From an uncultured Clostridia bacterium (GTDB lineage Bacteria > Bacillota > Dehalobacteriia > UBA4068), in contig CALYAP010000066.1 in the NCBI GenBank assembly GCA_944393575.1, forward strand, positions 14,300-78,299: 64,000 bases of DNA, given 5' to 3'. The notes below the pieces were generated by a model. It was given only the letters and a program-made list of their open reading frames with translations, was not told where the DNA came from and searched no databases. The translations under genes were made by a program, and so were the position numbers. Positions 12,257 through 61,667 of the stretch are shown piece by piece; the first letter of the stretch is position 1; each line of letters starts with the position of its first letter.

Positions 12257-13180
12257 ATGCGCATAGTTTTTCTTGGCAGTCCTGATTTTGCCACTATTCC
12301 CCTGCGTAAAATGGTAGATGCAGGATATGAAGTGGCGGGTGTTTTTAGCCAACCAGACCGTCCCCGGGGTAAAAGGGGAAAAGAGCTTAAGCCTACTCCA
12401 GTCAAAGAAGCGGCATTGACAATGGGGCTTCCGGTCTATACCCCGATGAAGCTTAACACCCCAGAGGCGATAGCTGAATTAAGAGCATTGAAGCCTGATC
12501 TGCTGGTAGTAGTCGCTTATGGGCAGATCCTCAACGAAGAAGTTTTGCAGACAGCTTCGCTCGGTGCGATCAATATTCATGCTTCACTGTTACCTTTTTA
12601 TCGCGGTGCGGCGCCTATTCAGCGGGCATTGATGAATGGTGAGCATGAAAGCGGTGTTACTATTATGTATTTGGATAAAGGCATGGATACTGGGGACATG
12701 ATCCTGCGCCAAAGTTTGCCGCTGGATGATAATGAGACTTTTGGCACCCTTCATGATAAGCTTTGTGAGCTTGGTGCCAACTTATTGCTGGAGGCCTTGC
12801 CATTGATTGAGGCGAGTACTGCCCCAAGGACTGCTCAGAATCATGACCTAGCCACCTATGCGCCTAAGCTTAGCCGAGAAGAAGAACTGATTAAGTGGGA
12901 TGCTCCAGCTTTTCAGGTTCATAATCTGATTCGTGCTTTGGACCCGGTTCCCGGAGCATATACTCTTTTTCGCAATAAGCGGTTAAAGCTTTTTGGTAGT
13001 TCTTTGGGGCAGGGACAAGGCGAGCCGGGAGAGCTGCTGCAGATCACTGCTGATGCGCTTGAGATCGCTTGTCAGGAGGGTTCTGTTTGGATAACTATGG
13101 TGCAACCAGAAGGAAAAGCTAGAATGTCAGTCGCTGATTTTGTTAGAGGATATCAAATACAAATTGGAGGTAAGTTTTAG
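12257..13180 (+). CDS. fmt: methionyl-tRNA formyltransferase
   Basis: Formyl-transferase N-domain (IVFLGSPDFA, HASLLP) plus C-domain. Sits downstream of def. Confidence 0.95.
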   Translation: MRIVFLGSPDFATIPLRKMVDAGYEVAGVFSQPDRPRGKRGKELKPTPVKEAALTMGLPVYTPMKLNTPEAIAELRALKPDLLVVVAYGQILNEEVLQTASLGAINIHASLLPFYRGAAPIQRALMNGEHESGVTIMYLDKGMDTGDMILRQSLPLDDNETFGTLHDKLCELGANLLLEALPLIEASTAPRTAQNHDLATYAPKLSREEELIKWDAPAFQVHNLIRALDPVPGAYTLFRNKRLKLFGSSLGQGQGEPGELLQITADALEIACQEGSVWITMVQPEGKARMSVADFVRGYQIQIGGKF

Positions 13181-13870
13181 ATGCCGATAATGTTTTTTGA
13201 CTGGACGATGATTCTTTTAATTCCTGCATTGATTCTTACGATATATGCACAGGCAAAAGTTTCTTCGACTTATAAAAAATATTCTCATGTGCGGGCGCGT
13301 TCAGGAATTGCTGCTTGCGATATGGCGCGTCAAATGCTCGATTATAATGGGTTGAGTAACGTGAAAGTAGAGCAGGTGCGGGGTAACCTAACTGATCATT
13401 ATGACCCAAGAACTAAAGTTTTGCGCTTATCAGAGGCTACCTATCATAGTACTTCTGTTGCAGCTTTGGGTGTGGCGGCCCACGAGGCTGGCCACGCCAT
13501 GCAGGACAAGGAAGCATATGCCCCGCTTAAAATTCGTAATGCCTTAGTGCCGATAGCCAATATCGGTTCTTCCGCATCCTGGATCCTGATTATCCTGGGA
13601 ATAGTATTTAGTACCTTTAATCTGATTACTATCGGTATCATTTGTTTCGCTGCTGTAGTTGTTTTCCAGCTAGTTACTTTGCCGGTGGAGTTCAATGCTT
13701 CTAACCGTGCTTTGGTAGCTCTGGAGGGCGGAGGCTTTTTGGAAGCAGATGAGGTGCAACAGACTAATAAAGTACTGCGCGCCGCAGCATTGACTTATGT
13801 TGCTGCTGCCTTGACCGCTATTTTGCAATTATTGCGTTTGCTGATATTGTTTGGCGATAGGAGAGAATAG
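13181..13870 (+). CDS. membrane zinc metallopeptidase (Zn_peptidase_2 family)
   Basis: HEAGHAMQ zinc motif and C-terminal TM helices. ATG directly abuts the fmt stop. Confidence 0.8.
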   Translation: MPIMFFDWTMILLIPALILTIYAQAKVSSTYKKYSHVRARSGIAACDMARQMLDYNGLSNVKVEQVRGNLTDHYDPRTKVLRLSEATYHSTSVAALGVAAHEAGHAMQDKEAYAPLKIRNALVPIANIGSSASWILIILGIVFSTFNLITIGIICFAAVVVFQLVTLPVEFNASNRALVALEGGGFLEADEVQQTNKVLRAAALTYVAAALTAILQLLRLLILFGDRRE

Positions 13871-21745: not shown

Positions 21746-21774
21746 TTGACAATATCTTTTGCATGGACTATCAT
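21746..21774 (+). promoter_or_regulatory. sigmaA-type promoter for the tetR-family gene
   Basis: TTGACA - 17 nt - TATCAT. A second cttgacaat copy sits 36 nt upstream. Confidence 0.45.
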
Positions 21775-21807
21775 ATAACAGTGATATATAACGGCGTTAT
21801 AGGGAGG

Positions 21808-22431
21808 ATGAATACAATAGGCGGAAACTTAACGACCTTAGAACGCATTCATCAGGCGGCAAAAGCAGAGTTTTTGGAAAAAGGCTATAAAGATGCTTCC
21901 CTACGAAACATTGTCAAATCAGTAGGCATGACTACAGGAGCCTTTTATGGGTATTACAAAAGCAAAGAAGACCTGTTTGAAGCTCTAGTAGGTAGACATT
22001 ATGAATATATCATTAATCGCTTCAAAGAGGCGCAGCAAGAATTTGCAAATCTGCCTCGTCACCGGCAGCCAGAAGTTATGAGCGAAGTATCAGGGCTTTG
22101 TATGTACGATATGCTTCATTACGCCTATGTGCATCTAGAAGAATGCAAACTCATCCTCTGCTGCTCGGAAGGGACCAAATTTTCCGGTCTTATTGATGAA
22201 ATGGTGGAAATTGAAGCGGAAGCAACGCACTCCTATCAGAAGGTCTTGCAGGAGCTAGGACGGCCTTCCCCGAAGATAGATCCCGCCCTGGAGCATATTC
22301 TGATTACCGGTATGTTTCATACTTTTTTTGAACTGGTGATTCATGAAATGCCGTTGGATGACGCAGAAAACTATGTAAAGGAAATGCGTGCTTTTTATAC
22401 AGCCGGATGGATGAAAATTATGGGGCAGTAA
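21808..22431 (+). CDS. TetR/AcrR-family transcriptional regulator
   Basis: N-terminal HTH (LRNIVKSVGMTTGAFYGYY). Start uncertain: the 21808 ATG directly abuts GGGAGG. An in-frame GTG at 21781 or ATG at 21763 is possible. Confidence 0.75.
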   Translation: MNTIGGNLTTLERIHQAAKAEFLEKGYKDASLRNIVKSVGMTTGAFYGYYKSKEDLFEALVGRHYEYIINRFKEAQQEFANLPRHRQPEVMSEVSGLCMYDMLHYAYVHLEECKLILCCSEGTKFSGLIDEMVEIEAEATHSYQKVLQELGRPSPKIDPALEHILITGMFHTFFELVIHEMPLDDAENYVKEMRAFYTAGWMKIMGQ

Positions 22432-22459
22432 AGCCCTGTAATTTTTGCCCATTGGTTAG

Positions 22460-22487
22460 TTGTGGCTAACTTATGCGTTGGTATAAG
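22460..22487 (+). promoter_or_regulatory. promoter of the ABC exporter operon
   Basis: TTGTGG - 16 nt - TATAAG, directly upstream of the palindrome. Confidence 0.4.
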
Positions 22488-22489
22488 AA

Positions 22490-22506
22490 GAACACAATAT
22501 GTGTTC
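22490..22506. promoter_or_regulatory. candidate TetR operator (perfect inverted repeat)
   Basis: gaacaca-ata-tgtgttc, 7-bp arms, abutting the -10 element. Confidence 0.5.
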
Positions 22507-22542
22507 TCTGTATCATAAATCAATAAAAAAGGAGGAATTTTT

Positions 22543-24312
22543 TTGAAAAAGCAATCTAATCTGTCACGCCTGCTCCAAATTGCAGGTAACCACAAATATC
22601 TGATCTATGCTTCGTGGGTGCTGTCAGCTATTAGTGCCTTCATTGCTTTGGTACCCTTTTATTACATCTGGAAAGTGATTCAAGAGGTACTAGAGGTTGC
22701 TCCGGATTTCAGTCTGGCACAAAATCTGACCCATAATGGCTGGATGGCAGTGCTATTTTCGGTCATCACGGTACTTGTCTACATAGCAGGTCTGATGTGC
22801 TCCCACAAAGGGGCGTTTCGTATTGCCACCAACCTGCGGCTGCAAACTATGGAACATATCGTCAAGCTGCCACTTGGGTTTGTAGAGAGTTTTGGTAGTG
22901 GCAAACTGCGCAAAATTGTCAATGAATCCAGCGCTGCCACCGAAACTTATTTAGCCCATCAGCTCCCTGATCGAGCTAATGCGATTGCAACGCCATGTGG
23001 TCTTTTAATCCTGTTGGTAGTGTTTGACTGGCGGCTTGGTCTTCTGAGCCTTGTCCCTGTAGCGCTGGGATTTCTGATTATGATGACAATGACCGGGCAA
23101 CAGATGCAGGAAAAAATGAAAGAATACCAAAATGCGCTGGATGATATGTCCAATGAGGCGGTAGAATATGTCCGAGGCATTCCAGTAGTCAAAACCTTTG
23201 GACAGACAATTTTCTCTTTCAAAAAATTCAAGGACTCAATTGACCGCTATAAAGTATGGGTGATCGCCTATACTAAACAGCTTCGAACGCCTATGATGTT
23301 TTACACAGCGGCCATTAACGGGGTTTTCGCCACGCTGATTGCAGGTGGTCTGCTGTTTACGCAAAACGGTGTCACCACAGAATTCCTGTTGGATCTGATT
23401 TTCTATATTATCATTACGCCAATTATCTCTGTTACGCTGACGCGCATTATGTTCCAAAGCGAAAATGCCATGATCGTAAACGATGCCTTGCAGAGAATCG
23501 ATAGCGTTTTGAATTTGAAACCTCTAGAAGAAGCGAAGCACCTCAAACATCCGAAAGATGCTTCGGTAGAACTGAAAAATATTCATTTCAGCTATGATGG
23601 AAAAACTGAGGTATTGAAAGGTATTTCCCTTACCATATCGCAAGGACAAACTGTAGCTTTTGTCGGACCATCTGGCGGTGGTAAAACTACGCTCGCCAAT
23701 CTGATTTCGCGTTTCTTTGATCCGCAGAGTGGTAGCATAAAGATCGGCGGAGTCGATCTAAAAGAGATTTCCAAGGAGGAACTGATGAACACCGTTTCCT
23801 TTGTGCTCCAAAACAGCCGTCTTATCAAAGCCTCTATTCTGGAAAATGTGCGCATGGGCAGGCCCGATGCAACCAGAGAAGAAATTCTTGCTGCACTTCA
23901 CAATGCCCAGTGCGATGATATTCTTGAAAAACTGCCGCAAGGAATGGACACGGTGATCGGTACGAAGGGCATTTATCTTTCCGGCGGGGAGCAGCAGCGA
24001 ATTGCCATCGCCCGCGTCATGCTGAAAAACGCCCCAATCATTATTTTAGATGAAGCAACGGCCTTTGCCGACCCTGACAATGAAACACGAGTACAGGCCG
24101 CTTTTTCAAAGCTCTCCAAAGGCAAGACGGTCATTATGATTGCCCACCGGCTTTCTACTGTAGCGGGCGCAGATAAAATTTATGTGATTTGCGACGGGCA
24201 GATTGCCGAGAGCGGTACCAGTCGTGATCTGCTGGCGCAAGACGGCATTTTCAGCCGGATGTGGCAGAACTATCAGACTTCCGTTCAATGGAAGGTTGCA
24301 AAGGAGGTATAA
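22543..24312 (+). CDS. ABC transporter permease/ATP-binding fusion (type I exporter half-transporter)
   Basis: TTG start with GGAGGA 6 nt upstream. Six TM helices. Walker A GPSGGGKTT, signature LSGGEQQR, Walker B ILDEAT. Confidence 0.9.
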   Translation: MKKQSNLSRLLQIAGNHKYLIYASWVLSAISAFIALVPFYYIWKVIQEVLEVAPDFSLAQNLTHNGWMAVLFSVITVLVYIAGLMCSHKGAFRIATNLRLQTMEHIVKLPLGFVESFGSGKLRKIVNESSAATETYLAHQLPDRANAIATPCGLLILLVVFDWRLGLLSLVPVALGFLIMMTMTGQQMQEKMKEYQNALDDMSNEAVEYVRGIPVVKTFGQTIFSFKKFKDSIDRYKVWVIAYTKQLRTPMMFYTAAINGVFATLIAGGLLFTQNGVTTEFLLDLIFYIIITPIISVTLTRIMFQSENAMIVNDALQRIDSVLNLKPLEEAKHLKHPKDASVELKNIHFSYDGKTEVLKGISLTISQGQTVAFVGPSGGGKTTLANLISRFFDPQSGSIKIGGVDLKEISKEELMNTVSFVLQNSRLIKASILENVRMGRPDATREEILAALHNAQCDDILEKLPQGMDTVIGTKGIYLSGGEQQRIAIARVMLKNAPIIILDEATAFADPDNETRVQAAFSKLSKGKTVIMIAHRLSTVAGADKIYVICDGQIAESGTSRDLLAQDGIFSRMWQNYQTSVQWKVAKEV

Positions 24313-24316
24313 CAAA

Positions 24317-26050
24317 ATGATAAAACGGCTGCAAAAACGATACGCTCTCTCTGAGCAGGGGGCAAAGGATCTTGTGAAAGGCTGTCTGGCCTGTGTCCTG
24401 CAAAATCTTTCCTTTATGTTCCCAGTAGGCCTATTGTTTTTTTTAGTGAACGATCTGTTAAACGGCGGTGTTCCCGGCGAAAAAATCGCATTTTATGTTA
24501 TTGGCTGCGTGGTATGTATCGGTTTTATTCTGATCACCACTTACATCCAGTATAATGCTACCTACTTTGCCACTTATACGGAAAGCGGCGTGCGGCGTAT
24601 TACGCTGGCTGAACGGCTGCGTAAGATCCCGCTGTCCTTTTTTGGTAAAAAGGATTTGGCCGACCTCACCAGTACGATTATGGCTGATTGCACCTTCTTG
24701 GAGCAGAGTTTTTCCCATTTTATTCCCGAACTAGCGGGTTCTATCATTTCCACAATTCTTATTTCTATCAGCCTGTTTGTTTTCGACTGGCGCATGGCGC
24801 TGGCGGCGCTGTGGGTCATGCCAGTTGCCTTTGCGGTTGTAGGCTTTTCCGCAAAAGTGCAGGAAAAGCTCAATCAAAAAGCCATGGATGTCAAGATGGC
24901 CTGCGCCGATGGGATTCAGGAGTGCATCGAAACAGTACGGGACTTGAAAGCTAACAATGCAGAGGCTGAATACCTGAAGGGACTGGAAAAGAAAATCCGC
25001 GCAGTGGAACGCCGCTCCATTCTCAATGAATTTGGACTTGCCGCCTTTGTTGTTTCTGCATCATTAATATTAAAATTAGGGATTGCTACGGTTGCGCTGG
25101 TTGGCTCAATGCTGCTGATTCAGGGGAGTTTGGATGTTATTACTTTTTTCCTGTTTTTATTGGTCGTATCGCGGCTTTATGACCCGCTGCAAGGCGCACT
25201 TCAAAATCTGGCTGCGGTAATCAGCACACGTACCAATATCGCCCGCATGAATGAAATTCTCGATCATCCCATTCAGCAAGGTGACAACCGGCTTTCCAAT
25301 AAAGGCTATGATATTGTCTTTGATCATGTGAGTTTTGCCTACAATACTGGAGAAACGGTTTTGAAAGATGTTTCTTTTACCGCAAAGCAAGGAGAAGTCA
25401 CAGCTTTGGTGGGGCCATCCGGCGGTGGCAAAACAACAGTTTCTCGACTGGCGGCAAGGTTCTGGGATGTGAGTCGAGGCAAGATTACTGTGGGAGGTAT
25501 GGATATTGCCAAAACAGACCCGGAAACGCTGTTGTCCCTGTTCTCCATTGTGTTTCAGGATGTGATCTTATTTGATAATACCATTTTGGAGAATATTCGG
25601 ATTGGGAGTAAAGAAGCTACCGATGAGCAGGTGATAGCGGCGGCAAGACTGGCCAACGTGGACGAATTTGCAGAAAAACTGCCTGATGGATGGAATACTA
25701 ACATTGGGGAAAACGGCTGTGAGCTTTCTGGCGGGGAAAGGCAGCGTATTTCCATTGCCCGAGCTTTCCTGAAAAACGCCCCAATTATTCTTTTGGACGA
25801 GGCAACTGCTTCACTAGATGTAGAAAATGAAACGATGATTCAAACAGCGCTATCCCGTTTGATTGCAGATAAGACTGTGCTGGTAATCGCTCACAGGATG
25901 CGCACGGTAGCTGGCGCAGACAAGATTGTGGTACTATCGGAAGGCATTGTGGCAGAAGAAGGTGCGCCGGAAGAATTGAAGAAGAAAAACGGCCTTTATG
26001 CCCATATGGTGAAGGTGCAGACGGAAAGCCAGAACTGGAGACTGGTGTGA
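24317..26050 (+). CDS. ABC transporter permease/ATP-binding fusion, probable heterodimer partner
   Basis: ATG at 24317 sits 5 nt after the upstream stop, with AAGGAGG upstream. Motifs GPSGGGKTT, LSGGERQR, LLDEAT. Confidence 0.9.
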   Translation: MIKRLQKRYALSEQGAKDLVKGCLACVLQNLSFMFPVGLLFFLVNDLLNGGVPGEKIAFYVIGCVVCIGFILITTYIQYNATYFATYTESGVRRITLAERLRKIPLSFFGKKDLADLTSTIMADCTFLEQSFSHFIPELAGSIISTILISISLFVFDWRMALAALWVMPVAFAVVGFSAKVQEKLNQKAMDVKMACADGIQECIETVRDLKANNAEAEYLKGLEKKIRAVERRSILNEFGLAAFVVSASLILKLGIATVALVGSMLLIQGSLDVITFFLFLLVVSRLYDPLQGALQNLAAVISTRTNIARMNEILDHPIQQGDNRLSNKGYDIVFDHVSFAYNTGETVLKDVSFTAKQGEVTALVGPSGGGKTTVSRLAARFWDVSRGKITVGGMDIAKTDPETLLSLFSIVFQDVILFDNTILENIRIGSKEATDEQVIAAARLANVDEFAEKLPDGWNTNIGENGCELSGGERQRISIARAFLKNAPIILLDEATASLDVENETMIQTALSRLIADKTVLVIAHRMRTVAGADKIVVLSEGIVAEEGAPEELKKKNGLYAHMVKVQTESQNWRLV

Positions 26051-26230: not shown

Positions 26231-26270
26231 TAAAAGAATCGGAACCGGCGTGACCTAACACGCTGGTTCC
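26231..26270 (-). terminator. terminator of the rSAM operon
   Basis: Minus-strand hairpin ggaaccagcgtg-ttaggt-cacgccggttcc followed by gattctttta. Confidence 0.5.
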
Positions 26271-26361
26271 GAGCAAAACACTTTTTACTTCCTTGTGGGA
26301 CGCTGCCTTTAATGGCAGCCTTTTTCGTTCCTTGTTTTATTCCTATGATCGTAGCGAATTT

Positions 26362-27327
26362 TTATGCGGTTGCTCCACCACAGCTTGAGCCGGAGCCGGC
26401 AGTACAAGCATAGCAATGGTTGGCAAAGGAGATTTGCCGTATTTTGATCGGCTGAGTAAGCAGGTCATGAATGGTAAGATTGCCTTCGATGGGCAAATGT
26501 GCAGCCTGGTTAAAATCGCAGTCATACAATAGCCCGTCGCAGCCAACAGAAAGCTGACTGCGGCACATCATATTGTAAGCAGCCGCTGGATTAAAAGCAT
26601 TATAGAGCCGCTGCATATAGCCGTTAAGATTGTTGCTGCGCTCTAAAAATGCGGCAAAACGTCCCAGCGGATTATTGGTTATGGCATATAAATCATTGAA
26701 AACAATACCATATTGTTCTTTTAAACGCTGATGATATTCTTTGGCTAGGGTTTCCTGGGGTGGTGGCAAGAAAGCACCGCCGGGATTGTAAACGAGATTT
26801 AATTTGAGATCATCATTTTTGCCATAGCCAAGTTCATTTAATTTCTGCAATAGCTCAATGCAGTCATTAAAGACGCCTTCCCCGCGTTGGCGGTCATTAT
26901 CTTTAGCAGTATAGAAAGGCAGTGAGGTGATGATTTCGATTTTATTATCTGCATATAACTTAGGGTAGCTTTGATATTCTGTCTTTTTTAATACGGTTAA
27001 ATTTGACCGGACCATCGCGTGAATTCCCAATTGATGGGCCTTTTGCAGCAGCCAGGGCAGATGGGGATTCAATTCCGGAGCTCCACCAGTAATGTCAAGC
27101 GTGCTAAAACCATATTTAGTAAATACTGCCAGACAGTCCTCCATGGTTTCCTGAGACATCATTTCTTGCCGATCTGCACCGCATTCCAGGTGACAATGCT
27201 TGCATGCTAAGTTGCAGCGGTAAGTAATATTCATTTGCAAGGTGGTTAGTTGCGGCAGGGTGAACTGACACTCTTCAGGAATAGTGTCTTTGAAGGGTTT
27301 TATACCTTGGATATCATTTAGGTTCAT
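26362..27327 (-). CDS. radical SAM/Cys-rich domain protein, ArsS/selenodomain family (Cys variant)
   Basis: 321 aa. N-terminal CNLACKHC (CxxxCxxC). C-terminus ...HCYACTAGSGSSCGGATA* matches CxAGxGxSCGG. Confidence 0.8.
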   Translation of the reverse strand: MNLNDIQGIKPFKDTIPEECQFTLPQLTTLQMNITYRCNLACKHCHLECGADRQEMMSQETMEDCLAVFTKYGFSTLDITGGAPELNPHLPWLLQKAHQLGIHAMVRSNLTVLKKTEYQSYPKLYADNKIEIITSLPFYTAKDNDRQRGEGVFNDCIELLQKLNELGYGKNDDLKLNLVYNPGGAFLPPPQETLAKEYHQRLKEQYGIVFNDLYAITNNPLGRFAAFLERSNNLNGYMQRLYNAFNPAAAYNMMCRSQLSVGCDGLLYDCDFNQAAHLPIEGNLTIHDLLTQPIKIRQISFANHCYACTAGSGSSCGGATA

Positions 27328-27342
27328 ATTACACCTCTTACC

Positions 27343-27675
27343 TTAGAATTGTAGTTTTTTTAGAACATTTTTCGCCTGCAAGCCATGTGCCAATGTAGCG
27401 CCGCCACGGATTGCCGCTGCCGCATGGATAGCTTCGATCATTTGTTCTTGGCTATAGCCTTGCTGGAGACATGATTGAGCATAAGAATCGATGCAATATG
27501 GACATTGAACCGCATGCGCTACTGCAAAAGCGATCAAACATTTTTCTCTTGCCGAGAGGGCGCCGTCTTCAAATACTTGGCCATAATAGGCCATAAATTT
27601 TTCCCATAATTCCGGTGCATCTTCACCCATATTACCAAATTGGGCCAGATCTTCAGGGTTGTAATAAGTATCCAT
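27343..27675 (-). CDS. carboxymuconolactone decarboxylase/AhpD-like peroxidase-like protein
   Basis: 110 aa. AhpD-core CxxC (VQCPYC). This family recurs with rSAM/selenodomain operons. Confidence 0.7.
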   Translation of the reverse strand: MDTYYNPEDLAQFGNMGEDAPELWEKFMAYYGQVFEDGALSAREKCLIAFAVAHAVQCPYCIDSYAQSCLQQGYSQEQMIEAIHAAAAIRGGATLAHGLQAKNVLKKLQF

Positions 27676-27677
27676 TG

Positions 27678-28373
27678 TTAGTCCTCCTTTAAATGTTTTT
27701 TAAAATACTTTTTATAGATAATGAAACCAATACTGACGACAAAGACGAGGATAATCGCGGCGATAATAATGTATAGCGTGCGGTTATCCGCTGAGAAAAC
27801 AGCAGATGAGCTAAAGGTAAATAGTGCTACGCCGGGTATCATAAACAAAAAAGTGAATAGTGTATAACGGCCAAATTTAATATCAGTAACGCCATAGGCG
27901 AAATTTTGCAGATTATAGGGGAAAATCGGAATTGTTCTGGTGATGAAGAGAATCAGGATATCGCTTTTTTCTGTTTCCTCAAAGAGCCAGCGGCGGAGAT
28001 ATTTATTTTTCATTGCCAAAGGCTTGATTGTATCGCGGAGAAAGAATCTCCCTACTAGATAAGACCCCATCGCGCCGATGGTGGTAGCCACTAGACAAAG
28101 AATACTGCCTAGATAGGGACCAAAAATGGCTCCTGCCAGGATGGCAAACGTCATTCCCGGCACTGCTAAAACTACGCAACCGATTACTGTTACTACAAGG
28201 TATAGCAATACTAGGGCGCCAAAGCTATCTGCTGCCTCTGTTAAAAAATCGTTTAGCCCATCAGTTTCTTGAAAAAGATCGCTCCAGCCATAAATATGAT
28301 TGAGCAATATAATCAATAGAATCAGCAGCAGCAGGATAATTATTTTAAAATATTTTCGGAAAAATTTTTTCAT
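27678..28373 (-). CDS. TVP38/TMEM64 (DedA-like) family membrane protein
   Basis: 231 aa polytopic protein with the conserved DedA-type core. 4-nt overlap with the upstream gene. Confidence 0.7.
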   Translation of the reverse strand: MKKFFRKYFKIIILLLLILLIILLNHIYGWSDLFQETDGLNDFLTEAADSFGALVLLYLVVTVIGCVVLAVPGMTFAILAGAIFGPYLGSILCLVATTIGAMGSYLVGRFFLRDTIKPLAMKNKYLRRWLFEETEKSDILILFITRTIPIFPYNLQNFAYGVTDIKFGRYTLFTFLFMIPGVALFTFSSSAVFSADNRTLYIIIAAIILVFVVSIGFIIYKKYFKKHLKED

Positions 28374-29200
28374 GATAATATGTTTTTAACCCTTTTTAAT
28401 AGCAGCAGTCGGTTCAACCATGCGCGTATTAAGCTGCGTTTGACATTATCTCCCCCATTATTAGCGAAGAATATTACTTCTAGAATATGGATCGCTGTAC
28501 AGCCCACTGAACGGAAAGAAGCAATGCAGGAGAAGCAATAGCTGATAATATGTTTATTATCACTACGGTTGATACTATTGCTAAGAATTTGCTTAGACGC
28601 CTGGGGATCGCGTATCATAAGCATATCCTTTTTACCACAACAGATAGTTTTATTCCTAGTATGCTGGTATTCCTGATAGGGAAATGACAATTGATCTAAA
28701 ATATTACGGATATTATCCTGGGTCTTTGTGTCATGGCGGCAGGGGCAAGGATCATGGAGCATGAATGAGGGATATCCTTGATAACAAGGCTTTTGTGGGG
28801 GCAAGTTATGCGCCAGTATCTCCCAAAGCGGAATGATTTCTATATCAGTGAAAGCTGTAAAATTTTTTTGGCAGTTGGGGCAGCAGACAATCAATTTTTT
28901 TATACCGGCATCATCGAGCCTTTGTTTTAATAAACCGGTATATTGTTGATATTTCTTAGTGCTTAATGTACGGGAAGGCTCGGCACAGCATAATGTTACC
29001 AAGGATATGTCTGGAAACATATCTTGCAGATAGCGGTAGACTGCCAGTGTTAAATCTACATCATATTCGCTCATACTACAGCCTGGGAAAAAGCCGATAG
29101 AACTTTGCCCAGATTGACAAATCCGTCCAAAGAGCCGTGAAAAACTGAGCTTCTGCTGGATACCGATATTTATTTTTGCTGCCAATGATAATTTTTTCAT
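28370..29200 (-). CDS. Cys-rich (Fe-S)-binding protein with two CCG domains (HdrB/GlpC-like)
   Basis: Two CxnCC[GA]xmCxxC units: PGC...LCCA...VCCPNC and DPCPC...ICCG...CFSC. No signal peptide. Confidence 0.65.
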   Translation of the reverse strand: MKKLSLAAKINIGIQQKLSFSRLFGRICQSGQSSIGFFPGCSMSEYDVDLTLAVYRYLQDMFPDISLVTLCCAEPSRTLSTKKYQQYTGLLKQRLDDAGIKKLIVCCPNCQKNFTAFTDIEIIPLWEILAHNLPPQKPCYQGYPSFMLHDPCPCRHDTKTQDNIRNILDQLSFPYQEYQHTRNKTICCGKKDMLMIRDPQASKQILSNSINRSDNKHIISYCFSCIASFRSVGCTAIHILEVIFFANNGGDNVKRSLIRAWLNRLLLLKRVKNILS

Positions 29201-29910
29201 TTTACTGGTAATGTTGTTAAATATCTCGCTAGTAATGAATCATCAGAAATATCCGTAGCTGTTGCTAGGTCAAGAGGCGTATCTATATCATGCAGCTGCG
29301 GTAATAAAAATAGATCGATAGCTGCTTTTTGAGCATTTTGTATAGTATCTGGCAATACCGTGTCAGTGCTCCAAGCAATATTGGAGAATAGCTCGGGAAT
29401 CACAGATCTGCTGCCGATAAGACAATATCCGTTATCAAGAGTAGGAGTAAGTATCGTGGGATGTTTGTCTAAAGCTATAAATGCTTGTTGTAGATATTGC
29501 GCAGTAAGCCCAGGACAATCGCAACCGATCAGTATTGCTGGCTGTTTGTCAATATTATGATTATATAATGCCTGATACATGCGTTCGCCAATATCTTCGC
29601 CTTTTTGGTGATGATATTGTACTTGATTTAATAAACTGCTTATCCGCTGCTTTTTTCCCTGGGGGCAAAAAGGATTTAGGCGTAGCAAGAGTTGTTTTTG
29701 TAGTTCTTGCCGGCTGCCGTTGGCCAAATAGATCTCAATAGCTATTGTTGGCAATATTACCGATAAATCTGCTGCCGCCAAAAGCGTATCCGCCAGCATA
29801 GCTGCATAGATAGTAGCGGCTTCTTTTCTGCTGTAAGTGGGCAGGAGGCGGCTTTTGACTGTGCCTAGGTAAGGTATTTTGGTGAAAATGAGTAATGCTT
29901 TATTGGGCAT
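29197..29910 (-). CDS. DUF2064 transferase (rSAM/selenodomain-associated transferase 1)
   Basis: Start MPNKALLIFTKIPYLGTVKSRL is typical of DUF2064. ATGA overlap with the CCG gene. Confidence 0.7.
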   Translation of the reverse strand: MPNKALLIFTKIPYLGTVKSRLLPTYSRKEAATIYAAMLADTLLAAADLSVILPTIAIEIYLANGSRQELQKQLLLRLNPFCPQGKKQRISSLLNQVQYHHQKGEDIGERMYQALYNHNIDKQPAILIGCDCPGLTAQYLQQAFIALDKHPTILTPTLDNGYCLIGSRSVIPELFSNIAWSTDTVLPDTIQNAQKAAIDLFLLPQLHDIDTPLDLATATDISDDSLLARYLTTLPVK

Positions 29911-30610
29911 ACAACTGATATAATTCCTCCAGAGTGTATTTGCCGCTACGGTAACGATGCTTATTTTTTTGAATGCGCCAATTGGTGCGCCAGATGCCAT
30001 GCTCCATATATTGCCTGGCACTGCTGATGGCGATAGCAGTCAATTCTACTGGTTTGGCTAATCTGGCTGCCCTCTGTGAGAATTCATAATCTTCCATGAA
30101 AAACATCGGGGCAAAGCCGCCTACCTGTGCATAAAATTTTTTTAAGCAAAACATTGTCTGATCGCCAAACACCAATGATTGGTAGCGAACACGGAGATGC
30201 GAAAAATAGGCGATAAGCTTCAGTGATAGTTTATCATTATCAAAATGAAGCCGGGCACAGCCCCACTGGGCGCCGTTGTTGATTGCTGTCAGCATTTCCT
30301 TAAAATATTGCCCGGTTATCCGGGTATCAGCATGGAGAAAAACCAGAATATCACCGCTGGCTATATTGCTGGCAGCAGCTAATTGTTGTCCTCGGCCACG
30401 TTTTCCTGTGAAAACTTGACTCGGATTTGTTCTCATTTGCAGCTGTTCTTTCATCAGCTTTATGCTTCCATCAGTACTGCCGCCATCAGCGAAAATTATT
30501 TCCGGCTGCTGGGGCAATTGGACGCAAGCTTTATCCAGATTATCCAGTAGGGGGATGATCTGGCTGTTTTCATTATAGATGGGGATGATGATACTGATTT
30601 TTGGTTCCAT
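29900..30610 (-). CDS. family 2 glycosyltransferase (rSAM/selenodomain-associated transferase 2)
   Basis: Start MEPKISIIIPIYNE with ACGGAG 6 nt upstream. GT2 DxD region. Overlaps the DUF2064 gene by 11 nt. Confidence 0.75.
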   Translation of the reverse strand: MEPKISIIIPIYNENSQIIPLLDNLDKACVQLPQQPEIIFADGGSTDGSIKLMKEQLQMRTNPSQVFTGKRGRGQQLAAASNIASGDILVFLHADTRITGQYFKEMLTAINNGAQWGCARLHFDNDKLSLKLIAYFSHLRVRYQSLVFGDQTMFCLKKFYAQVGGFAPMFFMEDYEFSQRAARLAKPVELTAIAISSARQYMEHGIWRTNWRIQKNKHRYRSGKYTLEELYQLYAQ

Positions 30611-30688
30611 TATGGCTCCGTGATAAAAATAATAGTAAGTTGCAGCAGAAGTTGGTATCTTCTGCTGCAACTTTAAATACAAAGATGA

Positions 30689-31573
30689 TTACTTCTCCTG
30701 AGGCTGATCCTCAGATGGTGTTGCTTCTGCCATTGTCGGTTCGGTTTTCTTTTTGTGTCGGTCATTGTAGACCTTTTTGATCAGGAAAGCTAAAGCAGCC
30801 AGACTGAAGATAATCATCAAGGCATAGACAAAAGTCCTGGTGCCCCCGGTCAGCATACCTCCAACATAAGAATAGACAAGTGTAGCTGGCAGTTGCCCGA
30901 CGCCTGTGGCTAGGAAGAAGCCCCAGAATCCCATACCGGTCAATCCAGCTGCATAGCTGACAAAGTCGAAAGAAACAAACGGCAGCAAGCGGCAAATCAA
31001 AATGGTGTTTTTACCATAACGTTCAAAGAAAACATCTACGGTTTTAATAGCGCCTTTTCCGGTAATTTTTTCTACTACATCACGCCCCAGAACTCTGGCA
31101 ATGAAGAAGCATAGGGCCGCACCAGCCATTGAACTGGTCCAGGAGAGGATAGCCCCTTGCCACCAACCAAAAACAGCTGCATTGGCAAAGGTTAACAAAA
31201 ATGCTGGCAATGGGGCAATCAAAGACTGGAACATCATTAGTAAAAAGGATACTAATACTGCCCAAACGCCAAAGGAACGGATATACCCCATAATTGTTTC
31301 TACGCTTGCTGAACTAAAGATCATAAAAATCTGATTGATCTTGGAGTTAACAGCAGGAATAGCAAAGTAAGCAATTACGGCTAATACCAATACCACTAAA
31401 ACGATAATACGCGCTTTTTTCCTTTTGCGTTTTGTGGCAGCCTTTTTGGCTTGTTCTTGCTCATTATCAGGCTGATTATTATCGGTAGCAGTAGTGCCTT
31501 GTTCCAATGATGTATTATTGTCTTTGCCATCATTGTTTATTGGTTCTGGAATGCTATTGTTATTTTCTTGCAT
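30689..31573 (-). CDS. TVP38/TMEM64 family membrane protein with N/Q/D-rich N-terminal extension
   Basis: 294 aa. About 55 aa of low-complexity sequence, then a KRKRKK anchor and DedA-like TM core. Confidence 0.7.
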   Translation of the reverse strand: MQENNNSIPEPINNDGKDNNTSLEQGTTATDNNQPDNEQEQAKKAATKRKRKKARIIVLVVLVLAVIAYFAIPAVNSKINQIFMIFSSASVETIMGYIRSFGVWAVLVSFLLMMFQSLIAPLPAFLLTFANAAVFGWWQGAILSWTSSMAGAALCFFIARVLGRDVVEKITGKGAIKTVDVFFERYGKNTILICRLLPFVSFDFVSYAAGLTGMGFWGFFLATGVGQLPATLVYSYVGGMLTGGTRTFVYALMIIFSLAALAFLIKKVYNDRHKKKTEPTMAEATPSEDQPQEK

Positions 31574-31606
31574 GATATTACCTCATTTACAAATATCTTA
31601 GCAATT

Positions 31607-32569
31607 TTATTCTACTTCATTAACAGCACACCATCTATAATAAGATTCATCATAATTCAAGGTGTTTTCAAAGCCGCACATTTCTAAGATTAGTTGCATA
31701 TATGCGGAGCGAATACCGGCAGTGCAATAGGTGACAATAGTATCATCGGTAGAGATGCCTGCCTCAGTAAACATGGCGATAATTTCATCATTGGATTTGA
31801 GGGTAGTATCATCTCTAAACAGATCAGTATAGCGGATATGAATTGCTCCTGGCAAATGACCGCCTTTTACTTCGCCATAAAGAGTTTGTCCGTTATATTC
31901 TTCATCAGCCCTTACATCAACTACGACATAATTATCATAATTAGCAGCTAAGTCATCGGTGTTGATGAGATGATCCTCATTGATAGCGGTCACAGTAACT
32001 TCACAAGGTACAGGTTCCGATGCTCCATTTTGAGTGGGAACGCCGTTTTCTGCTAAGTATTCATAGCCACCATTGACCATTTTGACATTTTCGTATCCCG
32101 CAGCCAGCAGGGTCCACAGAATACGTCCATCATCGCCCCAACCGTCTTGGGCGTTAGAAAAGATAATAATCTCTTTGTTCATATCCAAGCCGTTAGCAGA
32201 AAGCACTTCGCTGAGCTGGTCGGCTGGCAAAATAGTACCCCACATCGCATCCCCGCTTTGACCATTTGCGACATCAGCCAGCTGCTGCCAGATCATAGCA
32301 ATAGCGCCTTGAATGGTTCCAGATGCTGCAGCTTCAGGGCCACGGGCATCCAAAAAGATGACATCCTCTTGGCCAACTGCATTTTTCACATATTCTAAAT
32401 CAACTACATATTCACCGGTAAAAGCAACGGTATCTACTGCTTCATTATCATTTTCGCTGTTTACCTGTTCATTATTATTGGGCTCATCTGTGGTTTCATT
32501 GTTGGCACAAGCACTAAAGGCGAAAACACAGCAAAAAAGAACGACGGCAATCAAAAAAAGTTTTTTCAT
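31607..32569 (-). CDS. lipoprotein tandem-rhodanese sulfurtransferase
   Basis: Signal peptide plus lipobox FSAC. Two rhodanese domains. Active-site CTAGIRSA in the second domain. Confidence 0.8.
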   Translation of the reverse strand: MKKLFLIAVVLFCCVFAFSACANNETTDEPNNNEQVNSENDNEAVDTVAFTGEYVVDLEYVKNAVGQEDVIFLDARGPEAAASGTIQGAIAMIWQQLADVANGQSGDAMWGTILPADQLSEVLSANGLDMNKEIIIFSNAQDGWGDDGRILWTLLAAGYENVKMVNGGYEYLAENGVPTQNGASEPVPCEVTVTAINEDHLINTDDLAANYDNYVVVDVRADEEYNGQTLYGEVKGGHLPGAIHIRYTDLFRDDTTLKSNDEIIAMFTEAGISTDDTIVTYCTAGIRSAYMQLILEMCGFENTLNYDESYYRWCAVNEVE

Positions 32570-32693
32570 GATTTTTCCCCCTTGAAGTATTATAAATTAA
32601 TGTCAGTAATTGCAGGCAGGCGCTAATCCTATAATTACTTAATTATATACTAGTGGGTTTATATAGTTAATTCAAATTGTATTTATTAATGAA

Positions 32694-32733
32694 AAAATGC
32701 CATTTATCGGAAAAATTGATAAAATGGCATTTT
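32694..32733 (-). terminator. terminator after the GIY-YIG-like gene
   Basis: Hairpin aaaatgccattt-N16-aaatggcatttt with A/T-rich flanks. Confidence 0.55.
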
Positions 32734-58563: not shown

Positions 58564-59412
58564 TTACTTCTTGCGTTTGATTACCGAACGTTCCGCATAT
58601 TTGCCAAAGAAGTGATATCCCGATCCCCCTTCACTAATGATATCCAGTAATTCATCAGCTTTAGTCACGATGATTCCCCCGGTCATTGTGACTCCTTTAG
58701 CAAAAAGTGGTTCAGGCAGCATGCTGGCAGTAGGACCGGTGACTAGAATTTCCGCTCCAGGTTTAGCCATTGCCAGTAAACCAGGCAGCGTATCGTTGAG
58801 AATAGTAACGCCGGTAATGACCAATAAGTCAGCATACGGCACAAAATCTGCAGCCTGCTCTGCTGGCGCATAGTAAGGCATTTCCCTTTCTTTTAAAGTG
58901 CGCGGGTCCTGCTCCAAAACATGAAAATCACAATTGGCTGCAATCAGCTTTTTGAGTATGGGAACTAAAGCACCTATTACTACGCTTTTTGGATATTTAG
59001 TTACATCTAATTCATCAAAAGCATCTACTCCTAATTCAACAGCATATTCAGTGGGTAGTTCTAACTCCCAGATCAAAGTGCTTAAGGCATTTAATGTTGC
59101 GATGCCTAGAGTCTTTTTTAGGATATTGGTGCTAAAGATATCATTGAGATATTCACTGACCGGACGCTGGGCTAGCTTGCCGGATAATGGCATAGCAGCC
59201 GCGGAGCTGGGACAGCAAACCGCCTCAGGAATTTCCTTGACAGGGGTAAAACATAGCCCGCCATGACCGGTAGATAGTTTGACTCCCGAAAAGAAAAGAC
59301 CAAAGACTGCTCTTTCTACGGTAAGATCGTTTAACCGCTTCCCCAGTCTGTTTTGCACTAGATCAACGCTTTCTTGTAAAAGAATATCATTTGCCATTAT
59401 TTTTATCCCCAT
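58564..59412 (-). CDS. DUF4213/DUF364 (Rossmann-like, putative metal-chelation) domain protein
   Basis: 282 aa. Overlaps the moeA end. The start is possibly the internal MANDILL. Confidence 0.6.
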   Translation of the reverse strand: MGIKIMANDILLQESVDLVQNRLGKRLNDLTVERAVFGLFFSGVKLSTGHGGLCFTPVKEIPEAVCCPSSAAAMPLSGKLAQRPVSEYLNDIFSTNILKKTLGIATLNALSTLIWELELPTEYAVELGVDAFDELDVTKYPKSVVIGALVPILKKLIAANCDFHVLEQDPRTLKEREMPYYAPAEQAADFVPYADLLVITGVTILNDTLPGLLAMAKPGAEILVTGPTASMLPEPLFAKGVTMTGGIIVTKADELLDIISEGGSGYHFFGKYAERSVIKRKK

Positions 59413-60619
59413 TGCTTTCTGTGATATATTCTGGTTTTACCATTAATTCAATCGCAATAACTTCTCCTTGATGATGGCTAGTGCCTTTCTCAAGATAATA
59501 GAGGGAATTCATCTGTTGATAAGCCGCTGCCCGTGTCAAAACAAAGGTGTTGATCGGCTCAGCCAGCATTTTACCATTTTGACTGAAAAGGCGAAGCCGA
59601 ACCACAAAATCCATATCCCTTTTATCAAGAGCAGCTGTTAACTCGGCATTGATGTAATAGGGTTGAGGGAGTGGCTGGCCTTGTAGCAGCTCCACTGCCG
59701 GCTTGACATATAACTGGCTGATCAGATCTGCTCCATGTGGTGGTCCGGGGAGGCCGATGACTGGAACATCATTGACCATATAGAGAGAAAATTGCTTGCC
59801 TGGCCCATGCCGTAATTCAGGGACAATCATTTTGCCGATCTCGGATAAAACGGCCAAAGTATAATCGTGAGTTCCCTTGGCCGAACCAGCGCAGATTACC
59901 ACTAAGTCTGAGCTGGCTGCAGCATCTAAAACTGCTTGGCGAATAAGCTCTGCTTTATCTGCGATAATTGGCAGCGAGCGATATTCACCGCCCCATTCCT
60001 GAACTTGTGCCCCGCACATAATGCTATTAGATTCGATCTGTTTGCCAAGAGCTAAGGGTAATTGGCCGATGGGAACCAATTCGTCGCCAGTAGGGATAAA
60101 GGTTATCTGAGGTCTGGCTAATACTTTAGCCTGAGTGATGCCTCCTGATGCCATAATCCCGATTAGGGAAGGGGTAATCACCTCTCCGCTACGAACCAAC
60201 AGTTCATTAGCTACCACCTGGGTCCCGGGGTGGTGGAGCAATTCTCCCTTTTGTTGAGGATGATAGTGTAGGCAGAGATGTCCTTTTTCATCAAAAGAGA
60301 CATTTTCTATCTTGATGACAGTATCATATTGCTGCGGAACCTCACACCCGGTATTAGCATAGATATATTCTTTGCCCTCCTGCCAAGTGCTAGGGTCTGT
60401 CCCTTGCAGATCAGCAAAACGAATGGCTATACCATCCATGGCAGCAGTGTTTGTATTAGGCAGAGAATGAACTGCCATGATATCCTCTGCGGCAATACGT
60501 CCTGCCAGTTCAGTGAGCGGTAACACCTCATATCTATTGATCGGGCGCAACTGTTGTTGTAAGATATTTAGCATTTCCTGACGATTGGGACGCAGGTTGT
60601 TGTTTGGCATCTTTTTCAC
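59387..60619 (-). CDS. moeA: molybdopterin molybdenumtransferase
   Basis: Four-domain MoeA architecture. Motifs SLPNTNTAAMDGIA, GDEL. Confidence 0.85.
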   Translation of the reverse strand: MKKMPNNNLRPNRQEMLNILQQQLRPINRYEVLPLTELAGRIAAEDIMAVHSLPNTNTAAMDGIAIRFADLQGTDPSTWQEGKEYIYANTGCEVPQQYDTVIKIENVSFDEKGHLCLHYHPQQKGELLHHPGTQVVANELLVRSGEVITPSLIGIMASGGITQAKVLARPQITFIPTGDELVPIGQLPLALGKQIESNSIMCGAQVQEWGGEYRSLPIIADKAELIRQAVLDAAASSDLVVICAGSAKGTHDYTLAVLSEIGKMIVPELRHGPGKQFSLYMVNDVPVIGLPGPPHGADLISQLYVKPAVELLQGQPLPQPYYINAELTAALDKRDMDFVVRLRLFSQNGKMLAEPINTFVLTRAAAYQQMNSLYYLEKGTSHHQGEVIAIELMVKPEYITESNGDKNNGK

Positions 60620-60773
60620 CTCACATAATTGATGCGCTGCAATGTATTATTGTCAAATAAATATTATATTTAATTACGAATAATTTATCATGTTAGCCAT
60701 AATGATGTCAATCCGTAGGAAAATTTACCGATTATTCTCAATTAACTATTATTTTTATTTAAGAATAAAATTC

Positions 60774-60802
60774 TTGACACCTTTTGCCTATTTATATATA
60801 AT
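60774..60802 (+). promoter_or_regulatory. sigmaA-type promoter of the ABC importer operon
   Basis: TTGACA - 17 nt - TATAAT. Leaves an approximately 65-nt leader. Confidence 0.55.
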
Positions 60803-60875
60803 TATCGCTGAATTAATTATTCTGAAATGAGGATAAATATATTTATTATAATAGATATTTTTAAAGGATAAACAT

Positions 60876-61667
60876 ATGACTCTTCTTGTCCAAAATGGTA
60901 CCTGTGGTTATTCAGCAGCACACCCGGTTCTGCAAAATATTAATTTTAGTGTAGAAGCAGGTGAGGTGCTATGTATTCTGGGACCTAATGGCGCCGGTAA
61001 ATCGACGCTTTTCAAATCAATGTTACGGTTGATACCTATGCTAGGTGGAGCTTTGATGATTGATGGTGAAGATACCAAGGATTGGCCTCGTAGCCGGTTA
61101 GCTCAAACTATCGGCTATATCCCTCAGGCTACCAGTCCTCCGTTTGCTTATAGCGTTTCCGATATTATTCTGATGGGACGTACTGCCTATTTGGGAATGT
61201 TTGCTTCTCCGCGCAAGGAGGATATCGATATCGCCGAAGAGGTAGTCGATAAACTAAATATTAGCAAATTATTGGATAAACGTTATACCGAATTAAGCGG
61301 CGGTGAAAAGCAACTGGTGCTTATTGCCAGAGCTTTAGTTCAGCAGCCACAGATTCTGGTGATGGATGAGCCAACAGCAGCTCTTGATTTTGGCAACCAG
61401 CAGCTGGTCTTGCGGCAGATCAGCCTACTTTCTCAGCAAGGGTTGGGGATTATCATGGCTTCTCATTTTCCCGACCATGCCTTTTTATATTCACATAAGG
61501 CACTGTTACTAAAAGATGGTGGCATTTACTCCATTGGCAATCCTGGTGATGTTATTACGGAGGAAAGTCTCTGTGACCTATACTCAGTATCCACCCGGAT
61601 CATTAATACCGGGGTTTATTCCAAAACCGCTCAGGCTGAAGTCAAAGTGTGCGTTCCTTTATCGTAA
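60876..61667 (+). CDS. ABC transporter ATP-binding protein (FepC/FecE/BtuD type)
   Basis: Walker A GPNGAGKST, signature LSGGEKQ, Walker B LVMDEPT. Confidence 0.85.
   Translation: MTLLVQNGTCGYSAAHPVLQNINFSVEAGEVLCILGPNGAGKSTLFKSMLRLIPMLGGALMIDGEDTKDWPRSRLAQTIGYIPQATSPPFAYSVSDIILMGRTAYLGMFASPRKEDIDIAEEVVDKLNISKLLDKRYTELSGGEKQLVLIARALVQQPQILVMDEPTAALDFGNQQLVLRQISLLSQQGLGIIMASHFPDHAFLYSHKALLLKDGGIYSIGNPGDVITEESLCDLYSVSTRIINTGVYSKTAQAEVKVCVPLS

Follow-up and report, generated by a model that had tools for sequence, protein, structure and literature searches.

What would an ArsS-family enzyme of the radical S-adenosylmethionine (SAM) class make in an anaerobe whose ArsS cluster contains no gene for the arsenite methyltransferase ArsM? 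To our knowledge, no enzyme other than ArsS is known to initiate the synthesis of arsenosugars and arsenolipids, and studies of ArsS have been confined to a cyanobacterium. The question is raised by a 64,000-nt stretch of DNA from an uncultured Clostridia bacterium (contig CALYAP010000066.1, positions 14,300 to 78,299), referred to here as the window, in which eight open reading frames (ORFs) at 26362-32569 are all on the minus strand. They encode, in order of transcription, a rhodanese, a TVP38 membrane protein, a GT2 glycosyltransferase, a DUF2064 transferase, a CCG iron-sulfur protein, a second TVP38 protein, an AhpD-like protein and ArsS. An original prediction, made from the sequence alone, had described them as an operon translationally coupled throughout, had singled out the lack of an arsM partner and had thought the product more likely to be something other than a classical arsenosugar. 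All eight ORFs were found where they had been placed, and the identical operon is present on at least 22 independent metagenome contigs, so the cluster is not an assembly accident. We lean modestly towards the view, which draws on homology and gene linkage, that this is an anaerobe-type AhpD-ArsS 'arsenosugar' cassette that would convert a trivalent, probably methylated arsenical to a 5'-deoxyadenosyl arsenical and then to a riboside conjugate in or beyond the membrane.

The ArsS protein matched its family profile, TIGR04167, over profile positions 6-302 of 303 (E = 2.7e-124). The original prediction would have been abandoned had the protein scored below the family cut-off; its score is well above it (Table 1). 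Its C-terminal DUF3641 domain was recognised separately (PF12345, 173 bits). The radical SAM motif CNLACKHC (C38, C42 and C45) and the selenodomain-type C-terminus read from the sequence were both confirmed, the former being invariant in 81 ArsS sequences and the latter, HCYACTAGSGSSCGG, fitting the motif HCxxC-x-AG-x-GSS-(C/U)-GG with its Cys/selenocysteine position. Seven cysteines, C305 and C308 included, are invariant across the 81 sequences, and the window ArsS keeps all of them. At position 316, 69 of the 81 have Cys, as does the window protein, and 12 have an in-frame TGA followed by GG-x-x-x-stop; the latter are selenocysteine forms (loci L012, L018, L025, L026, L028, L031, L034, L043, L045, L046, L063 and L069), which are common in Coriobacteriia, Anaerococcus and some Lachnospiraceae. 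The window residue equals the consensus at 67 positions that are at least 95% conserved, and of the positions conserved to at least 90% among the other 80 sequences, it departs from them at only two (P51A and E195A). By these measures the window ArsS shows no sign of a changed enzyme. In a neighbour-joining tree, ArsM-linked ArsS proteins were scattered among unlinked ones. A separate anaerobe clade of ArsS was considered and rejected, as linked and unlinked sequences interleave and the conserved positions are common to both. The closest ArsS among the matches listed in a genome-collection scan is from Clostridium sporogenes (60% identity), and a search of the PDB by sequence returned remote radical SAM cores and no solved ArsS structure. 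The NCBI annotation of Clostridial homologues already reads "arsenosugar biosynthesis radical SAM (seleno)protein ArsS", and the cluster in itself is therefore no novelty.

That the window lacks arsM was borne out by a six-frame search with an ArsM hidden Markov model (HMM), in which the best score was 4.7 bits, on RsmB. The HMM was built from 14 ArsM-like proteins encoded beside ArsS in other genomes, a representative of which has the arsenite methyltransferase NF008823 as its best NCBIfam match. To what extent this absence is peculiar to the window was seen in a survey of 80 ArsS loci of other species, from about a dozen phyla or classes, among the matches listed in the genome-collection scan. 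The survey counts come from six-frame HMM searches within 10 kb of ArsS and, many contigs being short, are lower bounds. ArsM was detected near ArsS in 16 of the 80 loci and was missing from 64. By lineage, it was found in 2 of 18 Clostridia loci (both Anaerococcus), 0 of 4 in Synergistetes, 1 of 11 in Coriobacteriia and 13 of 47 in the others; the three groups of gut-type anaerobes have arsM linked in 3 of 33 loci and lack it in 30. An unlinked arsM is the norm for the ArsS family, and linkage marks the characterised system, not the family, which removes the oddity that the original prediction had seen here. The ArsM-like protein encoded next to ArsS in Anaerococcus has many gut relatives, those with names belonging to Anaerococcus, Campylobacter curvus, Lagierella, Eggerthellaceae, Coriobacteriia and Aerococcus, a distribution that is silent on the genome of the window.

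The same survey revealed which genes do accompany ArsS. The AhpD-ArsS pair occurs in 72 of the 80 loci, DUF2064 in 25 and GT2 in 22. Genes for TVP38, CCG, rhodanese, YdjY-domain and C-GCAxxG-C-C proteins are near ArsS almost only in anaerobic lineages, and the first three together with YdjY recur beside AhpD-ArsS in Clostridia, Synergistetes, Coriobacteriia and Deltaproteobacteria. The window cluster is a full form of this anaerobe-type AhpD-ArsS cassette. A C-GCAxxG-C-C (seleno)protein gene adjoins ArsS in 10 of 18 Clostridia loci and in 2 Deltaproteobacteria loci (L007-L012, L020, L021, L031, L042, L062 and L067, taken together), with none in the window; NCBIfam pairs this family with an ArsM-like methyltransferase (DVU_1555/DVU_1556). 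In 5 of 10 Bacteroidetes loci (L029, L058, L066, L074 and L083), and also in L023, ArsS is adjoined by a purine nucleoside phosphorylase (PNP) gene. This linkage suggests that phosphorolytic removal of adenine from the adenosyl arsenical is the next step of the pathway, and the gene order AhpD-ArsS-(ArsM)-PNP-DUF2064-GT2 of L029 and L058 fits adenine removal followed by nucleotidyl activation and transfer.

Natural fusions provided a further view of the family. A HMMER search of 1.84 billion cluster representatives yielded 401 clusters at E <= 1e-30, and the best 150 of these were examined. They included seven or eight fusions of ArsM with ArsS, in both domain orders. One protein (P0348, 651 aa, from a high-GC organism) joins ArsS to a YdjZ-type TVP38 domain with 47% identity to E. 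coli YdjZ, and another (P0414, 766 aa) is a triple fusion of GT2, DUF2064 and ArsS, the ORF of which ends in ...AGSS, where the selenocysteine forms carry TGA. In addition, the Anaerococcus locus L045 has the order AhpD-ArsS-ArsM-YdjY, with ArsS in its selenocysteine form, which places ArsM and the accessory set resembling that of E. coli in one cluster. Together, the fusions and the L045 gene order argue for ArsM, ArsS, both transferases and the TVP38/YdjY set acting in one pathway, and for a tie between the ArsS family as a whole and arsenic methylation.

It is nevertheless conceivable, and in our estimate rather improbable, that an ArsS-type enzyme of this kind adenosylates a selenium, sulfur, tellurium or antimony species. 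The result would be a seleno- or thio-riboside conjugate, with the rhodanese supplying or processing the substrate, the TVP38 pair importing it and the AhpD/CCG relay carrying it. Such a substrate would suit a window without arsM and a group of anaerobes in which arsM is so seldom linked, and no ars genes stand out around the anaerobe cassettes. The accessory proteins have sulfur or selenium connections (the rhodanese, the AhpD-like protein, the C-GCAxxG-C-C protein of Clostridia, and the CCG protein, which is akin to the 'dicluster near Sec' family NF045663), the rhodanese of L017 matches the selenite/tellurite-reduction protein ExtH, the accessory set exists in E. coli without ArsS, and 12 of the 81 ArsS proteins are themselves selenoproteins. 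However, a selenocysteine in the enzyme is uninformative on its substrate, and redox proteins of the sulfur and selenium type are equally expected for thiophilic As(III). The ArsS family is moreover uniform, with ArsM-fused and ArsM-adjacent members throughout, and biochemical precedent for another substrate is nil. The judgement that the product is more likely not a classical arsenosugar is consequently not one that we favour, given the retained invariant cysteines, the two deviations, the interleaved tree, the ArsM-ArsS fusions and L045. Arsenic as the element handled is likewise presumed.

The partner proteins were assigned by an NCBIfam profile scan, in which four of the eight proteins scored above curated cut-offs (Table 1), upholding both the family assignments and the recurrent neighbourhood that had been recognised in the sequence. 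The rhodanese and CCG protein, claimed as extra sulfur and redox components, were likewise confirmed. The AhpD-like protein is the near-universal partner of ArsS and is encoded directly upstream of it. The best NCBIfam match of the CCG protein is NF045663, a pyridine nucleotide-disulfide oxidoreductase/dicluster-binding protein; the match is partial (profile positions 417-638 of 759; 146 bits vs a cut-off of 530) and covers the CCG part of that family. The two sets of cysteine motifs (C41/CC71-72/CC106-107/C110 and C152/CC187-188/C222/C225) do not vary across 10 homologues. A search of the PDB with the CCG protein sequence found no match. An AlphaFold2 model (predicted local distance difference test 86) was compared with known structures using Foldseek, and the best matches were LutA, with a query-normalised template modelling score of 0.59, and HdrB chains, with 0.49-0.55, at a sequence identity of only 12-16% to these solved structures. 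The CCG gene always adjoins a TVP38 gene in related loci. We infer that the CCG protein would be a disulfide reducer that recharges the CxxC motif of the AhpD-like protein.

The two transferases, whose genes adjoin with an 11-nt overlap, are both above their cut-offs. In the PDB the DUF2064 protein matched 3cgx, a 'putative nucleotide-diphospho-sugar transferase' (E = 9e-18), and its match to CofC was weak. The next-best matches of the GT2 protein were polyprenyl-phosphate glycosyltransferases such as ArnC, confined to the N-terminal domain, which is a weak lead towards a lipid acceptor. By family the GT2 and DUF2064 proteins are also MftF-like and CofC-like, and ArsS has weak matches to SPASM/peptide-maturase radical SAM models. 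ArsS, the AhpD-like protein and the CCG protein could on that basis serve to assemble or mend a redox cofactor, or to modify a protein, which the transferases would decorate as MftF does in mycofactocin and CofC in F420. We consider this highly improbable. The maturase matches reach 30-45 bits vs cut-offs above 250 and cover only the shared radical SAM core, the region's ORFs of 60 aa or longer include no apparent precursor-peptide gene, the sole characterised member of the family makes a C-As bond on a small molecule, and the ArsM fusions indicate arsenic.

The membrane proteins pointed to an operon of E. coli. The TVP38 protein of gene 2, which has an N-terminal low-complexity extension, is 55% identical to E. 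coli YdjZ over 228 aa (BLASTP, E = 2e-86), and that of gene 6 is 32% identical to E. coli YdjX over 183 aa (E = 8e-27). The two are orthologues of YdjZ and YdjX, respectively, and each has a different one of these paralogues as its best E. coli match. The rhodanese has a signal peptide and a lipobox (...AFSAC); its N-terminal domain is without the catalytic Cys and its C-terminal domain has the active-site loop CTAGIRS. It is distantly related to E. coli YnjE (24% identity over 218 aa by BLASTP), and its best NCBIfam match, 3-mercaptopyruvate sulfurtransferase, is below the cut-off (NF045521, 35 vs 145). The AhpD-like protein and YnjA share a superfamily, with pairwise similarity that is not significant, and YdjY has no match in the window and is present in seven related ArsS loci. 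At least one match to the E. coli YdjZ/YdjX/YdjY/YnjE set is carried by 17 of the 80 surveyed loci, in four lineages, with identities of 51-57% for YdjZ, 30-37% for YdjX-type proteins and 34-43% for YdjY. The YnjE-like rhodaneses of these loci reach 38% over about 300 residues (35-38% in L009, L010, L017 and L031).

In E. coli K-12 the corresponding genes form the string ydjX-ydjY-ydjZ-ynjA(AhpD-like)-ynjBCD-ynjE(rhodanese). This operon is listed as FNR-activated and anaerobically induced (PMC3688515), and a literature search found no paper linking it with ArsS. At the end of the string, tail to tail with ynjE, is ynjF (12784-13404 of the E. coli K-12 locus, L087), which encodes a CDP-alcohol phosphatidyltransferase domain; its position may point to a connection between the E. 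coli module and a special phospholipid head group.

A rival view is that the window holds two units side by side, namely a rhodanese/YdjZ unit akin to E. coli ydjXYZ-ynjA-E, with a role of its own and closed by a hairpin, and a separate six-gene ArsS unit. The layout of the cluster bears on this. The GT2 and DUF2064 genes probably start at 30610 (236 aa) and at 29910 (237 aa), respectively, the latter rather than at a GTG at 30021; the GT2 start has the ribosome-binding site GGAG and is the one called on metagenome contigs. With these starts, the DUF2064 gene overlaps the CCG gene by 4 nt and the CCG gene overlaps the YdjX-type gene by 4 nt, and gaps of 2 nt and 15 nt separate the YdjX-type, AhpD-like and ArsS genes. 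The rhodanese and YdjZ-type genes are separated by 33 nt, and the YdjZ-type and GT2 genes by 78 nt. Tight packing is limited to the last six genes, and the translational coupling of all eight had been overstated.

Within the 78-nt gap lies a candidate intrinsic terminator or attenuator (Table 1). The 101-nt stretch that contains this hairpin folds at -29.7 kcal/mol (z = -5.2). The idea that the hairpin is a dispersed repeat was rejected. A sister species (L088), the ArsS of which is 79% identical, has the cluster at the same chromosomal site. After its YdjZ-type gene, at the position of the window hairpin, stands another hairpin that differs in sequence and is followed by UUUCUUCUU (L088 3385-3430). 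The sister species is without the rhodanese gene (L088 2286-2483 vs window 31607-32569), and the rest of the cluster is syntenic. The rhodanese is thus an accessory part that was recently gained or lost. A consensus scan found no promoter-like site between the internal hairpin and GT2. A promoter candidate precedes the rhodanese start codon by about 70 nt, with the terminator of the preceding gene, which encodes a GIY-YIG protein, upstream of it.

The positional conservation of the hairpin, the wider gaps at the first two junctions compared with overlaps or at most 15 nt elsewhere, the dispensable rhodanese and the ArsS-less operon of E. coli all speak for two units. We regard that arrangement as unlikely, since without a promoter-like site between the hairpin and GT2 the six genes would need read-through. 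A YdjX-type gene is moreover embedded in the six-gene block by a 4-nt overlap, the sister species retains the YdjZ-type gene directly upstream of GT2, orthologues of the E. coli set are linked to AhpD-ArsS in 17 of 80 loci, and ArsS and YdjZ are fused in nature. The most economical reading places a single promoter upstream of the rhodanese and has part of the transcription end after gene 2, because no promoter-like site lies between the hairpin and GT2. The hairpin probably determines how strongly the first two genes are expressed relative to the last six. Of the 'eight-gene operon', the co-directional arrangement stands; the cluster is probably organised as 2 + 6 genes with an internal terminator or attenuator, and one of its genes is dispensable in the sister species.

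At the distal end, the predicted hairpin and U-tract after the last gene were found about 90 nt past the ArsS stop codon. A nearer hairpin has its T-tract on the plus strand and is oriented for the converging ATP-binding cassette (ABC) transporter gene. In the presumed rhodanese 5' leader we observed an inverted repeat, GTAATTATAGG...CTGCAATTAC, which has no Rfam match and could be an operator or a leader hairpin; an Rfam scan of the whole window found no riboswitch or other RNA family.

Collectively, these observations can be arranged into a tentative pathway. Transcription would start upstream of the rhodanese, and the hairpin after gene 2 would cut read-through into the six downstream genes. 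The source of methylated arsenic would be either an arsM at another place in the genome or the community or host around the bacterium. The AhpD-like CxxC protein, recharged by the HdrB/LutA-like CCG protein, may keep the arsenical reduced or thiol-bound and pass it to ArsS. ArsS would cleave SAM reductively and add the 5'-deoxyadenosyl radical to As(III), as the Synechocystis enzyme adds 5'-deoxyadenosyl to dimethylarsenite (bioRxiv 10.64898/2026.04.29.721666; PMC12159101; bioRxiv 10.1101/2022.09.23.509062). Adenine would then be removed by a housekeeping nucleosidase or phosphorylase, for which the Bacteroidetes clusters have the dedicated PNP, and the arsenoriboside would be activated by the CofC-like DUF2064 protein and GT2 and passed on to an acceptor that is possibly a lipid. 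The YdjX/YdjZ-type TVP38 pair may carry the lipid-linked product or its carrier across the membrane; one report presents DedA-family proteins as polyprenyl-phosphate transporters (bioRxiv 10.1101/2022.02.03.479048). The surface rhodanese lipoprotein would be an optional extra that might, for instance, serve thiolation or provide sulfane sulfur. Family memberships and linkages are the observed part of this scheme, and every chemical step is one that we infer from them for this organism.

Several points weigh against the arsenosugar cassette. The window is without arsM, and no ars-type gene was noticed among its ORFs. When Pfam families were counted in 150 ORFs flanking the 33 anaerobe cassettes, no family was enriched, none of the 25 most frequent families was an ars-resistance family and TusA occurred in only two ORFs. 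The internal hairpin and the rhodanese that is missing in the sister species weaken the picture of a single unit. E. coli has the YdjX/YdjY/YdjZ/YnjA/YnjE set without ArsS, so the module can work without the ArsS reaction. The roles proposed for the AhpD-like, CCG, DUF2064, GT2, TVP38 and rhodanese proteins are drawn from family and context, and a literature search found no paper with an assayed ArsS from an anaerobe. We also offer a broader idea, as speculation of low probability. The AhpD-ArsS core and the YdjX/YdjZ module of anaerobes (plus YdjY, the YnjE-like rhodanese and CCG) might form an arsM-independent pathway to a membrane- or surface-bound, adenosyl-derived organo-metalloid or organo-chalcogen conjugate, of arsenic or of selenium or sulfur. 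In that case the same machinery for transport and processing might survive, or have its counterpart, without ArsS in the FNR-induced E. coli ydjXYZ-ynjABCDE operon.

Table 1. Positions in the window of the ArsS cluster, its candidate transcription signals and nearby features. Scores are in bits; cut-offs are those of the profile named.
Feature	Position	Strand	Details
Gene 1, lipoprotein tandem rhodanese, 320 aa	31607-32569	minus	PF00581, two stretches
Gene 2, YdjZ-type TVP38/VTT (DedA-superfamily) membrane protein, 294 aa	30689-31573	minus	PF09335, 94.9
Gene 3, GT2 glycosyltransferase TIGR04283 (MftF-like), 236 aa from the probable ATG at 30610	29900-30610	minus	198.4 vs cut-off 182; PF00535
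Gene 4, DUF2064/TIGR04282 transferase, CofC/MobA-like nucleotidyltransferase fold, 237 aa	29197-29910	minus	171.2 vs cut-off 134; PF09837
Gene 5, stand-alone double-CCG iron-sulfur protein (HdrB/LutA-like), 276 aa	28370-29200	minus	PF02754
Gene 6, YdjX-type TVP38/VTT membrane protein, 231 aa	27678-28373	minus	PF09335, 84.1
Gene 7, AhpD/CMD-like CxxC protein (CPYC), 110 aa	27343-27675	minus	TIGR04169, 182.5 vs cut-off 120; PF02627
Gene 8, ArsS, radical SAM/DUF3641, 321 aa	26362-27327	minus	TIGR04167, 414.3 vs cut-off 300; PF04055 and PF12345
Terminator of preceding GIY-YIG gene	32692-32733		
Sigma-70-like promoter candidate	32642-32670	minus	TTAACT-17-TATAAT; consensus match only
Presumed rhodanese 5' leader	32570-32641		Inverted repeat
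Candidate internal intrinsic terminator/attenuator	30623-30673	minus	Perfect 15-bp hairpin, 7-nt loop, then U-rich ACUAUUAUUUUUAU; YdjZ-type/GT2 gap
Hairpin oriented for converging ABC transporter gene	26302-26319	plus	T-tract
Terminator-like hairpin after ArsS	26232-26270	minus	GGAACCAGCGUG...CACGCCGGUUCC then U-tract GAUUCUUUU
TetR regulator and two multidrug-type ABC genes	21763-26050		ABC genes at 22543-26050
Region that looks like a cofactor uptake and insertion cluster	58564-63974	both	Divergent gene groups

The surroundings of the cluster differ between the two species. The TetR regulator and two ABC genes downstream, which in the window stand between ArsS and the MTHFR gene, are absent from the sister species (window 21763-26050 vs L088 7789-7887), in which MTHFR directly follows ArsS, indicating an insertion or deletion difference beside the cluster. 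Elsewhere in the window, SpoVAD and SpoVAE scored above their cut-offs, with SpoVAC, YqfC and YqfD just below theirs, in agreement with the spore-forming host named in the original prediction. The region at 58564-63974 encodes a DUF364/DUF4213 'putative heavy-metal chelation' protein and a MoeA-like molybdopterin molybdotransferase on the minus strand and, divergently on the plus strand, an ABC ATPase, a FecCD-type permease and a probable binding protein; it looks like a cluster for metal or molybdenum/tungsten cofactor uptake and insertion.

The wider interest of the locus lies in the abundance of arsS among the Clostridia, Lachnospiraceae, Coriobacteriia and Synergistetes of host-associated samples, where it usually has no arsenic methylase linked to it. 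If these bacteria do make organoarsenicals from dietary or host arsenic, this would matter for the speciation and toxicity of arsenic in the gut; should another element be used, the automatic "arsenosugar biosynthesis" names would be wrong for a large group of genomes. The orthology to YdjZ, YdjX, YdjY and YnjE provides a first functional context for these E. coli y-genes, and E. coli is a tractable host in which to study the membrane module. What goes beyond existing annotation is the definition of the anaerobe-type variant, the E. coli ydjXYZ/ynjE orthology and the internal terminator-like hairpin.

Work by Xue et al. in 2019 and Cheng et al. in 2021 is said to have placed arsM-arsS of Synechocystis sp. 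PCC 6803 at the first steps of arsenosugar synthesis. The window ArsS belongs to the same radical SAM/DUF3641 family (TIGR04167, 414 bits, with the invariant cysteines kept) and presumably shares its chemistry. In Synechocystis, arsS is co-transcribed with arsM (bioRxiv 10.1101/2022.09.23.509062), whereas the window has no arsM within 64 kb, encodes in addition a TVP38 pair, a CCG protein and the surface rhodanese, and comes from a spore-forming Firmicute known here from metagenome assemblies. In the NCBIfam/TIGRFAMs 'arsenosugar biosynthesis' neighbourhood, TIGR04167, TIGR04169, TIGR04282 and TIGR04283 are named, and all four are in the window, in one string and above their cut-offs. That neighbourhood rests on co-occurrence, the reaction having been demonstrated for ArsS alone, and the CCG protein and rhodanese of the window are outside its named families. 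The ArsL/ArsM arsinothricin pathway offers a parallel, in that a radical SAM enzyme forms a C-As bond alongside an arsenite methyltransferase (bioRxiv 10.64898/2026.04.29.721666). ArsL, however, transfers a 3-amino-3-carboxypropyl group and is of a different radical SAM family, so that its relation to the window ArsS is limited to the radical SAM core.

With HdrB and LutA the window CCG protein shares the two CCG cysteine motifs and the fold, but the locus encodes no HdrA/HdrC or LutB/LutC partner for it. The E. coli ydjX-ynjE operon and the window string have in common a YdjZ orthologue and a YdjX-type paralogue and, at the level of superfamilies, an AhpD-like protein and a multi-domain rhodanese outside the cytoplasm. 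ArsS, GT2, DUF2064 and the CCG protein are missing from the E. coli operon, whereas the window cluster is without YdjY. E. coli also has the ABC importer YnjBCD, whereas the window cluster has no ABC transporter, the ABC genes downstream of it being of the multidrug type, with their own TetR regulator, and absent from the sister species.

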